From an uncultured Acidobacteriota bacterium (GTDB taxonomy: Bacteria > Acidobacteriota > Polarisedimenticolia > QHYA01 > CAVVHA01), in assembly GCA_963747925.1 (NCBI GenBank), contig CAVVHA010000012.1:133222-197221 (forward strand): DNA of 64,000 bases. Direction: 5' to 3'. The notes under the pieces were generated by a model, which did not search any database, had not been told where the DNA came from, and saw nothing but the letters and a program-made list of their open reading frames with translations. Below, piece by piece: positions 55,200 through 57,612 of this stretch (its first letter is position 1; each line of letters starts with the position of its first letter). Position numbers and translations under genes: made by a program.

Positions 55200-57612
55200 G
55201 TGAACTGGAAAAGAATGACCGCACGAGTGATCCTTCTCGCCGCCATGGTGGCGCTTCTCGGGGGGTGCGCCTCCCAGACGGCGTTCCGCAAGGCAGAGGA
55301 AAGCGCCAACCGGGGCGACTGGGACGCCGCCGTCCTGGGCTACCACAGGGCCCTCGGCCTCGATCCGGGCAACGACCGGTACCGGGCCGCGATGGTGCGG
55401 GCGCACCTCAAGGCCTCGGCCGTCCACTTCGAGCGGGGCAAGCGGTACGCCGAGGCCGGCTCGCTCGAGCTGGCGATCGCCGAGTTCGAGCAGACGGTCT
55501 TCCTCGACCCGGAGAACCAGTACGCCAAGGTCGAGCTGGACAAGGTCCGCGCGAGGCTCGACCGGCTCCGGATGACGCCCAGCGAGATCGAGCTGGCGAA
55601 GGCCGCGGCGGCGAAGAAGTCCCTCGCGCCGCCCAAGCTGTCCCCCTCCTCGAACCAGCCGATCGTCCTCAAGTTCAAGGACCAGGAAGAGCAGAAGATC
55701 TACGACGCGATCTCCAAGATCTCCGGGATCAACTTCCTCTACGACGACAAGCTGGACCAGGACCTGAAGACGAAGAAGTCCGTGGACCTCTCGGGCGTCA
55801 CGTTCGAGCGGGCGATGGACATCCTGATGCTCCAGTTCAAGCACTTCTACAAGGTCATCGACGAGAGCACCCTGTACATCGCCCAGGACAACCGCGCCAA
55901 GAGGACCGAGCTCGAGGACAAGGTCATCAAGACCTTCTACCTCTCCAACGGCGACACCAAGCAGGTGAACACGCTGCTGCGCTCCCTGCTCGAGGTCCGG
56001 AAGATCGCCGAGAACGCGCAGCTGAACTCGATCTCGATCAAGGACAGCCCCGACGTGGTCGAGGTGGCGCAGAAGATCATCGAGGCGAACGACAAGGCGA
56101 AGGCCGAGCTCGTGGTGGACGTCGAGCTCCTCGAGCTGGACCGCACGCGCCTGCAGGAGCTGGGCATCGACCTGAAGGACAAGAGCCTGACGCTCAGCTT
56201 CCTCGGCGGGAACGCAGTCGGTCGCGCTGAACAACCTCAACTCCATCAAGCAGAGCGGAAACTGGTCGATCGGCCCGATCCCGACCGTCGTCGTCAACTT
56301 CCTCAAGAGCGACTCCGACACCAAGGTCCTGAGCCGGCCGCAGATCCGCGTGACCGAGGGCGAGAAGGCCGAGGTGCATCTCGGCAACCGGGTCCCGATC
56401 CCGACCACGACCTTCAACACGAGCAACACCGTGGGCAGCAACATCGTGCCCGTGACCTCGTTCACGTACCAGAACACCGGCATCCAGCTCACGCTCGAGC
56501 CGCGCGTTCACCACAACCGCGAGGTGACGCTGAAGCTGAACGTCGAGGTCTCGTCCGTGGCCGGCTACGTCGGCGGGTCGGGCGGAACGGCCGCCCAGCC
56601 GATCATCGGCACCCGGCAGGTCCAGACGGTCGTGCGGCTGCGCGACGGTGAGACGAGCCTGCTTTCCGGCCTCCTGAACGAGGAGGACAAGAGCAACTAC
56701 AGCGGGATCCCCGGGCTCGGGAACATCCCCGGCCTCCGCCGCCTGACGGGAAGCCAGCGGGACGAGAAGAACACCGTCGAGGTGGTCCTGACCCTCACGC
56801 CCCACATCATCCGGATCCCGGACATCTCCGAGGCCGACCTCGAGGCGATCTGGGTGGGGACCGAGGACAACACCCGCCTTCGCGGCAGGAAGGTCAACGC
56901 CTTCGGCGAGACCCCCTTCGGCGGGGCCGACGACGCGGCGGCCTCCGCCGCGGCCGCCCGCCAGACGCGCTCCGGCGCCGCAGCGGGCCCCTCCGCCGCG
57001 CCGGGCGCGAACCCGTCCGCGTCCCCGTCGAAGAGCGCCGCGCCGTCCCGCACCACGCCGGCCGCGCCGAAGGCGGCCCCGCCGCCCGCGGGCAGCGACG
57101 ACGAGTTCGACGACTCGCAGGCGCCGGCGCCACAGGGGCAGCCGAGCCCCTCCGGGCAGCAGCCTCCCGCGACGCCTCCTCCGCCCTCCTCCCTGGCGCA
57201 GGTGATCCTCGTCTCGCCCAAGAGCTCGTACACGGGAGGCGAGACGCTCACCCTGCAGGTGCAGATCATCGGGGGGCAGAACGTCGGCTCGGTCCCGTTC
57301 CACCTGCGCTTCAACCCGGCGGTGCTCGAGTTCGTCGGCGCCGTCGAGGGCGACTTCCTGCGCCAGGACGGAGGTCCCACGACCTTCGTCGCCAACGAGG
57401 TGCAGGGGGCGGGCGAGGTCGTGGTCGGCGCATCGAGGGTCGGCTCAGGGCAGGGCGCGAGCGGCTCGGGGATCCTCGCGACCTTCCAGTTCCGGGCCAA
57501 GGCGCCGGGATCGTGCACGTTCTCCTTCACGGGGGCGACCGTGCGCGACCCGAACGCGAACAACCTGCCGTGCTCGTTCACGACGGCCATCATCAGCGTC
57601 ATCTCGGTCTAG
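55200..57612 (+). CDS. secretin (GspD/PilQ family) lipoprotein with N-terminal TPR region and C-terminal cohesin-like domain (one frame switch)
   Basis: Lipobox MNWKRMTARVILLAAMVALLGGC is followed by TPR-like helices and secretin-N-type domains (VIKTFYLSNGDTKQVNTLLRSLL...NSISIKDSPDVVEVAQKIIEANDK). A frame switch near 56210 leads into ORF 56350..57612. That piece holds the secretin core (VLSRPQIRVTEGEKAEVHLGNRVPIP...GIPGLGNIPGLRRLTGSQRDEKNTVEVVLTLTPHII). A Pro/Ala linker spans ~56920-57195. The cohesin-like beta-sandwich spans ~57196-57609 (GETLTLQVQIIGGQNVGSVPFHLRFNPAVLEFVGAVEGDFL...GILATFQFRAKAPGSCTFSF). Confidence 0.85.

Follow-up and report, generated by a model that had tools for sequence, protein, structure and literature searches.

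Secretins are the common outer-membrane gates of type II and type III secretion, of type IV pili and of filamentous phage export, and how they are targeted and anchored and, above all, how cargo is selected at them is still debated. A stretch of 64,000 nucleotides from an uncultured bacterium of the Polarisedimenticolia (Acidobacteriota; contig CAVVHA010000012.1, positions 133,222 to 197,221), referred to here as the window, contains a secretin gene in which two functions normally found on separate proteins, a tetratricopeptide repeat (TPR) lipoprotein and a cohesin, appear hard-wired into the pore subunit, and it raises the question of what a secretin does with a cohesin at its C-terminus. 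The fusion is genuine and old within its lineage; it is also widespread and subject to selection. As its best explanation, to which we assign a probability of roughly 45%, the protein would be the lipo-secretin of a machine resembling a type IV filament or a type II secretion system (T2SS), with a self-piloting TPR N-terminus and with periplasmic docking by tethered cohesins.

As sequenced, the gene is not continuous. The list of open reading frames (ORFs) contains two long ones on the plus strand, in different frames (55200-56651 and 56350-57612). The first reads sensibly until '…LTLSFLGGNA' and turns into Arg/Pro-rich nonsense thereafter; the second frame is open from 56191, reading '…SVALNNLNSIKQSGNW…', and a plot of third-position GC places the change of coding frame between 56131 and 56221. 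The indel was mapped by comparison with L001, a 7.4-kb JGI metagenome contig that aligns with positions 54607-61981 of the window at 96.3% nucleotide identity. In this alignment a lone A is found at 56216, at the boundary of frame A (55200 to about 56215) with frame B (about 56217 to 57612). The deletion of this A yields an ORF of 803 residues, whose product is 98% identical to P0001, the intact 798-residue protein encoded by L001, and each of the best 120 homologues is a single ORF of 756-960 residues. Because the homologues and the 96.3%-identical contig carry one intact ORF, the frame switch is a 1-nt indel and not a gene boundary. Two separate genes, or a programmed frameshift, are ruled out, given the uninterrupted sequence of the homologues and of L001 and the nature of the shift, a lone extra A, which represents a sequencing error, an assembly error or a very recent mutation. 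The preliminary description of this locus, made from the sequence alone, had considered the switch near 56210 as something to be repaired rather than as the limit between two genes, and this is borne out by the intact ORF of the relatives and by the strong purifying selection acting on the downstream part.

A different possibility is that the shift at 56216 is real and the gene is a pseudogene in this organism, yielding only a truncated N-terminal product and never expressing the cohesin. The secretin ORF is indeed interrupted as sequenced, and so are at least nine neighbouring genes. The Lon, ThiL and extracytoplasmic function (ECF) sigma factor genes have one frameshift each, the PilN gene has two and the GspF gene three; the GspE gene combines frameshifts with an in-frame TAG at 50752-50754, and the PilP-like gene, the first pseudopilin gene and psp3 are each affected. 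Because housekeeping genes (Lon, ThiL) are also broken, assembly error is favored over decay, and the whole pattern points to an error-rich, perhaps long-read, assembly rather than to gene decay. In addition, the ratio of nonsynonymous to synonymous substitutions (dN/dS) downstream of the shift is low in comparisons with the intact relatives: for the pore it amounts to 0.025 against L001 and 0.15 against L002, and for the cohesin to 0.05 and 0.08, in the same order. Since the gene is, furthermore, intact in L001, it is very unlikely that a pseudogene is being dealt with here. Over the region 41964-60582 as a whole, many conserved genes contain interruptions, namely single-base indels or a nonsense codon. 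In L002, a related ENA contig, the GspE and GspF gene calls are likewise fragmented.

In the repaired protein, all four parts of the architecture proposed in the preliminary description are present, and essentially where it had placed them: a lipobox, a TPR module, the secretin N-domains and core, and a linker followed by a cohesin (Table 1). When the protein was searched with Pfam, Secretin, Secretin_N and Cohesin scored above their cut-offs and TPR_2 remained just below its own (24.1 bits at residues 74-106, cut-off 27). The N-terminus, MNWKRMTARVILLAAMVALLGGC↓A, has the sequence of a lipoprotein signal peptide, with predicted lipidation; the lipobox L-x-G-C-A is kept in nearly all of the 120 homologues, and its Cys is invariant in the alignment designated A1 (C18 there). 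A profile of the N-terminal 122 residues matched consensus TPR proteins of the PDB at E-values of 1e-19 to 1e-23, and in the AlphaFold2 model of full-length P0001, built with a 64-sequence alignment, the TPR helices have a predicted local distance difference test (pLDDT) score of about 95. The earlier suggestion that this part is a pilotin or MshN-like partner fused in cis stands as an analogy and not as demonstrated homology, the matches being those of a generic three-repeat TPR. The identification of the module as a PilF, TadD or MshN homologue was dropped on these grounds, and the NCBIfam search gave no PilW-, TadD- or MshN-type match at E≤1. Residues 5-116 (55212-55547 in the window) did show a weak NCBIfam match (34 bits, E 1e-8, far under the cut-off of 500) to the N-terminus of TraC, the outer-membrane-exchange lipoprotein of Myxococcus; it probably reflects merely the common lipoprotein-TPR layout.

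The central part of the protein belongs to the secretin superfamily. The PF00263 match (135.8 bits, E 1.5e-39) is well above the cut-off of 27.5, and the periplasmic N-domains characteristic of the superfamily (N0/STN and Secretin_N) are present, PF07660 being recorded for many homologues. Foldseek retrieved InvG, PilQ, GspD, BfpB (9u5s), RcpA and pIV at E-values of 1e-11 to 1e-17, and the barrel of P0001 was modelled at moderate confidence. The segment that follows the core, at the position of an S-domain, contains invariant D, W, V and G residues in alignment A1, with a majority-residue frequency of 0.73; neither Pfam nor the AlphaFold model revealed recognisable S-domain helices, and no AMIN domain was matched by Pfam in the repaired protein. 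Narrower assignments did not follow from the equivalog models: the protein scored 142 bits for GspD (TIGR02517, cut-off 351), 96 bits for PilQ (TIGR02515, cut-off 284) and 94.3 bits for MshL (TIGR02519, cut-off 250.2), and its SctC score was also far beneath the cut-off. Because of these scores, the missing AMIN domain, the PilMNOP-like partners and the absence of a PilT gene from the locus, the protein is filed only as the secretin of an uncharacterised machine of the type IV filament superfamily.

Beyond the pore, residues 546-654 of P0001 are disordered in the model (pLDDT <50). Across the family this tether varies from 56 to 135 residues, and its composition is dominated by Pro (21%), Ala (14%), Glu (12%) and Gly (12%). 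It leads to a C-terminal β-sandwich modelled in P0001 with a pLDDT of about 95. In the window's own protein, Cohesin (PF00963) was matched at residues 678-780 with 33.3 bits, rising to 37.4 bits in a search of the isolated domain, against a cut-off of 24.1. A separate model of its C-terminal 143 residues, based on a 25-sequence alignment, reached a pLDDT of 95.4 and a predicted template modelling (pTM) score of 0.88 and displays the nine-stranded jelly-roll β-sandwich of cohesins. When this fold was compared with the PDB by Foldseek, all top 50 matches were cohesins, with TM scores of 0.70-0.82 (0.76-0.82 for the closest), including those of Archaeoglobus fulgidus (2xdh, E 6.5e-11), C. acetobutylicum (CohA2, 6kgc, TM 0.82) and C. 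perfringens (2jh2), and with type I, II and III cellulosomal cohesins among them. At the sequence level, a profile of the cohesin family recovered the cellulosomal cohesin 3l8q (E 8e-8) and 2xdh (E 5e-4) from the PDB. The C-terminal domain is a true cohesin. A chance match to some β-sandwich is ruled out by the Pfam score, the profile matches and the uniform list of fold matches, and the structure prediction that had been suggested as a check on the fold thus came out in its favor.

In characterised cohesin-dockerin complexes, strands 8-3-6-5 form the sheet that binds the ligand, the dockerin, and high-affinity protein docking is, to our knowledge, the only known job of a cohesin. In the family described here the invariant residues fall in β3 (S-x-P-x-H in 'GSVPFHLRYN'), β5, β6 ('VVGxSR'), the Gly-rich β6-β7 loop and β8, which is consistent with a conserved binding face made of strands 8-3-6-5. 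Across 64 homologues, the majority residue had a frequency of 0.73 in the TPR module, of 0.76-0.82 in the N-domains, of 0.77 in the pore and of 0.71 in the cohesin; in the tether it was only 0.27, and the dN/dS of the tether (Table 1) also exceeds those of the pore and the cohesin. A cohesin constrained like the pore while the tether varies is the pattern expected for a functional module held on a flexible leash.

The fusion is not a peculiarity of the organism sampled. A scan of the GTDB species representatives detected relatives in at least 589 genomes, and the best 80 of these are almost all from Acidobacteriota (Polarisedimenticolia, Polarisedimenticolaceae, Thermoanaerobaculia, 'gp22' and isolate Mor1), the few other labels among them being probably binning errors; a search seeded with a 40%-identical relative recovered the same family. 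In about 66 of 85 loci the pore is closely followed by the cohesin; the remainder consists mostly of contigs that end early, and the cohesin is present wherever the contig reaches that far. This includes a divergent clade (L072, L075 and L078), whose cohesin has the more canonical motif 'VSFTVTYDPRTIDF', and because this clade retains the domain the fusion is old within the lineage. It is, therefore, a lineage-wide variant, present in hundreds of species of Acidobacteriota, which are frequent inhabitants of soils and sediments and, with few exceptions, uncultured. The names given to the homologues in databases are generic ('general secretion pathway protein D', 'cohesin domain-containing protein', 'hypothetical protein'), and no paper describing a secretin-cohesin fusion was found in the literature, in agreement with the initial remark that no functional characterisation was known. 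The architecture is visible in automatic annotations yet appears uncharacterised.

The machine genes around the secretin (a GspE ATPase, a GspF platform, PilM/N/O/P-like alignment proteins and two to three pseudopilins) are typical of Polarisedimenticolia and Thermoanaerobaculia. Within such a machine, the acylated N-terminal Cys and the TPR module would flank the barrel at the inner leaflet of the outer membrane, and the lipidated N-terminus would there take the place of a pilotin encoded separately, as it does in BfpB and HxcQ, and fulfil the function of PilF and TadD. By analogy with these systems, a built-in targeting and assembly module is the most economical reading of the lipidated TPR N-terminus. 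BfpB is the lipo-secretin of the type IVb pilus of enteropathogenic Escherichia coli (EPEC) and HxcQ that of the Hxc T2SS of P. aeruginosa. Both bear, like the present protein, their own N-terminal lipobox Cys, and the stretch that joins the lipid anchor to N0 is expected outside the barrel, where it would make a separate pilotin or an S-domain unnecessary. In the case of BfpB, the lipidated domain at the N-terminus is packed against the outer face of the barrel, in place of an S-domain and its pilotin (PMC12531336). Unlike those of BfpB and HxcQ, which are an extended helix or linker, the lipidated segment is here a folded module of three TPRs, and neither of the two proteins has a C-terminal tether and cohesin.

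An outer-membrane lipoprotein part that is built of TPRs and works with a secretin is also found in PilF/PilW/Tgl of type IVa pili (T4aP), TadD of the Tad system and MshN of the mannose-sensitive haemagglutinin (MSHA) pilus, although these are separate proteins of about 250 residues with some six TPRs, in contrast to the approximately three that are fused in cis here. TadD clamps the periplasmic C-terminal tail of RcpA in its groove, and among type IV filament systems no relative of TadD other than MshN has been identified (PMC10499894). With GspD (T2SS), PilQ (T4aP) and MshL (MSHA) the protein shares the secretin core, N0 and one Secretin_N, as well as an operon encoding a GspE/GspF-type ATPase and platform and pseudopilins; unlike them, it has no AMIN and only one N1/N3-type domain, and the inner-membrane partners are PilMNOP-like and not GspC/L/M. 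Finally, scaffoldin and non-cellulosomal cohesins (2xdh, 2jh2) have the same nine-stranded β-sandwich and PF00963 signature and the same placement after a Pro-rich linker, but the cohesin described here differs from those of scaffoldins in being present only once, as part of the outer-membrane pore of a Gram-negative bacterium, and in that it may lie in the periplasm.

At the C-terminal end, 12-15 cohesins per assembled ring would hang on their flexible tethers and dock a partner via the conserved 8-3-6-5 face, thus recruiting it to the pore. The docked partner could be secretion cargo, a component of the pilus or pseudopilus, or an envelope anchor. Docking would most likely occur in the periplasm, in the manner of a fishing line, rather than at the cell surface, because the C-termini of solved secretins emerge on the periplasmic side of the barrel. 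Indeed, in the solved secretin-pilotin complexes 5zdh, 6hcg and 8odn the C-terminal region of the secretin is bound by the pilotin lipoprotein, hence on the periplasmic side (PMC10499894). If the ligand of the cohesin were found, it would show what the machine handles and would offer a tractable model for the recruitment of partners to secretins.

A number of observations weigh against this proposal. The secretin gene is broken in the window as sequenced; the TPR module shows no specific similarity to the pilotins PilF/PilW, to TadD or to MshN, matching generic TPRs only; the AlphaFold monomer provides no confident domain-domain arrangement (pTM 0.32); and the conservation of the binding face was read off strand positions and not off three-dimensional coordinates. 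The search for a dockerin, which covered the window, 85 related loci and the neighbouring genes, was also negative. The dockerin-like tandem Ca-loop motif, searched as a regular expression, is absent from all frames of the window, where the preliminary description had seen no dockerin-like partner either; the same expression found no dockerin in real coding frames of the 85 related loci (about 0.9 Mb), and the neighbouring genes gave no Dockerin match in Pfam. Moreover, the characterised cohesins known to us all act outside the cell. With respect to topology, the weak side of the proposal, one tag-accessibility study places the C-termini of the type IV pilus secretins BfpB and PilQ extracellularly (PMC4453517).

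The last two points are those to be expected if the cohesins were displayed on the surface. The preliminary description had suggested that the domain could tether a secreted substrate or a filament tip to the pore, and for this the C-terminus would have to be outside the cell; docking as such is plausible. The tether would then carry each cohesin to the outside, where a crown of 12-15 of them would catch emerging secreted proteins that bear a dockerin or some other tag, or the emerging filament: a cellulosome-like arrangement built onto a secretion pore. Pro/Ala-rich tethers are, as is well established, typical of scaffoldins, and an immunoglobulin (Ig)-like lipoprotein, a plausible surface cargo, is encoded inside the pseudopilin cluster. 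The nearest cohesins outside the family also belong to surface-displayed multi-cohesin proteins, which have sorting domains of the type IX secretion system (T9SS). On the other hand, we know of no route by which a folded domain of 140 residues could cross the outer membrane in each of some 15 subunits, and the search of the window and of the 85 loci yielded no dockerin. The pilotin lipoproteins of 5zdh, 6hcg and 8odn, in turn, hold the C-terminal region of the secretin in the periplasm (PMC10499894). Taking both sides into account, surface display appears unlikely.

The comparison with cohesins elsewhere derives from a profile search of 1.84 billion representative proteins, in which the closest ones were fragments of this same secretin family and multi-cohesin, T9SS-sorted, scaffoldin-like proteins. 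Close relatives of the cohesin in other architectures were rejected as candidates, for only secretin fragments and multi-cohesin proteins were obtained, and the high scores of the latter are the sum of 4-7 domains. Three of them (P0121, P0123 and P0128) contain 4-5 cohesins resembling that of the secretin and a CarboxypepD_reg domain, and the T9SS Por_Secre_tail is found in P0121 and P0123 and not in P0128. These proteins look like scaffoldins of Gram-negative bacteria. The Ig-like lipoprotein was considered as a conserved ligand as well and discarded, its relatives keeping only the lipobox and the first Ig domain and nothing dockerin-like. A mirror-tree analysis aimed at a co-evolving partner within the operon was uninformative, the best partial correlation being that with the cytoplasmic PilM (0.55).

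A further alternative dispenses with the external ligand. The cohesin would bind its own machine or the envelope (the TPR module, on its own chain or on that of an adjacent subunit, the wall of the barrel, the PilP/PilO platform or peptidoglycan), and it would clamp the ring, aid its assembly or fix it in the wall, standing in for the AMIN domains or the S-domain/pilotin pairs of other secretins. The lack of an AMIN domain and of recognisable S-domain helices is in keeping with such a role, as is the equal conservation of TPR module and cohesin, whose evolutionary distances, corrected for those of the pore core, are weakly correlated (partial r 0.33). There is also a precedent in the Tad TPR lipoprotein, which binds the C-terminal end of the secretin (PMC10499894), both elements being here on one chain. 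However, the TPR-cohesin signal is no better than that of cytoplasmic PilM and is, therefore, uninformative; a long tether of variable length is needless for a fixed intramolecular contact, and AlphaFold gave no confident packing of the domains, as noted above. A purely structural role is improbable, and if the cohesin did only stabilise or anchor the ring, it would represent a new solution to secretin assembly.

Docking by tethered cohesins admits a more specific version, in which they constitute the cargo- or partner-recognition device of the machine, 12-15 'fishing lines' that catch proteins with dockerin-like tags at the secretin. The site of capture could be the periplasm, from where the proteins would be fed into the pore, or the exterior, where they would be retained at it. 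In this specific form the idea is rather doubtful. Were it true, this would be the first case of cohesin-type docking as an integral part of a secretion or pilus machine in Gram-negative bacteria, and it would give T2SS-like systems an explicit, modular answer to the problem of substrate recognition.

Table 1. Features of the secretin gene and its surroundings, in positions of the window
Feature	Position	Strand	Basis or remarks
Whole secretin gene	55200-57612	+	803 residues after removal of the extra base at 56216; stop codon 57610-57612
Signal peptide and lipobox LGGC (residues 20-23)	55200-55268	+	Read from sequence; predicted lipidated Cys23 at 55266-55268
TPR module, ~3 repeats (residues ~27-125)	55278-55574	+	Pfam, profile, AlphaFold helices
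N0 (STN-like) periplasmic domain (residues ~155-230)	55662-55889	+	AlphaFold β-α-β fold, pLDDT ~80
Secretin_N, PF03958 (residues 244-302)	55929-56105	+	Pfam, 30.0 bits (cut-off 28.2)
Single extra A	56216	+	+1 frame shift; gap in alignment with L001: GGGAACGC[A]GTCGG
Secretin pore-forming core, PF00263 (residues 368-538)	56302-56814	+	Pfam, 135.8 bits
Conserved post-core segment (…IPDISEADLEAIWVGTEDN…), S-domain position	56815-56934	+	Alignment A1, residue frequency
Disordered Pro/Ala/Glu/Gly-rich tether, ~86 residues	56935-57192	+	pLDDT <50, majority-residue frequency 0.27, dN/dS 0.33-0.56
C-terminal cohesin (residues 665-803)	57193-57609	+	Pfam PF00963, model, fold matches, dN/dS
Breaks in conserved genes (examples)	43525; 46984-47005; 48993-50090; 50752-50754; 52878-53043; 54664-54675; 56216; 57679-57718; 59804		
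Protein of ~246 residues, one Secretin_N-like domain (26.4 bits), then a β-rich region	~48100-48862	+	L005:3372-4112
GspF-like platform and GspE-like ATPase genes, both broken	48883-51802	+	tblastn with intact L005 proteins
PilM, PilN, PilO-like and PilP-like genes, directly upstream of the secretin	51807-55188	+	
Two pseudopilin genes, directly downstream, the first with a frameshifted N-terminus	57625-58565	+	N_methyl motif in relatives and in 58161-58565
Ig-like lipoprotein, 3x Big_1/Invasin_D3, within the pseudopilin cluster	58585-59601	+	Pfam Big_1, 67.8 bits
Pseudopilin-like protein, long Gly-rich low-complexity C-terminal tail (…GGGGFGGRGATPGGNRPGSGFGGGGGGKPGPDSD)	59806-60582	+	
tRNA-Leu (CAA)	36982-37070	-	Only RNA gene detected in the window (Rfam and tRNA scan); far from the secretin locus

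As for the surroundings of the gene, the order is the same in every relative examined. The secretin is preceded by Lon (sometimes followed by ThiL), the ECF sigma factor, a zf-HC2-like protein, the Secretin_N-like protein of about 246 residues, GspF, GspE, PilM, PilN, a PilO/GspM-like protein and a PilP-like protein, and it is followed by two pseudopilins, the Ig-like lipoprotein, a pseudopilin-like protein of about 255 residues, an M16 peptidase, a dUTPase, a protein with a metallo-β-lactamase (MBL) fold and PurB. It is a chromosomal core locus and not an island. In the relatives, the platform and ATPase proteins are matched by T2SSF and by MshEN plus T2SSE of Pfam, respectively.

The Ig-like lipoprotein, which may be a surface cargo of the system or an adhesin, is conserved in position and variable in domain type (Big_1/Invasin_D3 or PKD): its relatives keep the lipobox (Cys with a Glu at position +2) along with the first Ig domain, and the rest swaps between Big_1 and PKD. 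The pseudopilin-like protein encoded next to it gave no Pfam match, its position being conserved in the relatives. The protein of about 246 residues is encoded just upstream of GspF in all relatives. BfpG binds the outside of the N3 ring of BfpB, and by analogy this protein may be a comparable accessory ring protein. Lastly, the genes for the ECF sigma factor and for a small protein with a weak zf-HC2 (anti-sigma-like) match (window 46673-48002, plus strand) are always found directly upstream of the operon, as deduced from a comparison with the upstream genes of L003-L005, which suggests that the machine is under envelope-stress or ECF control.

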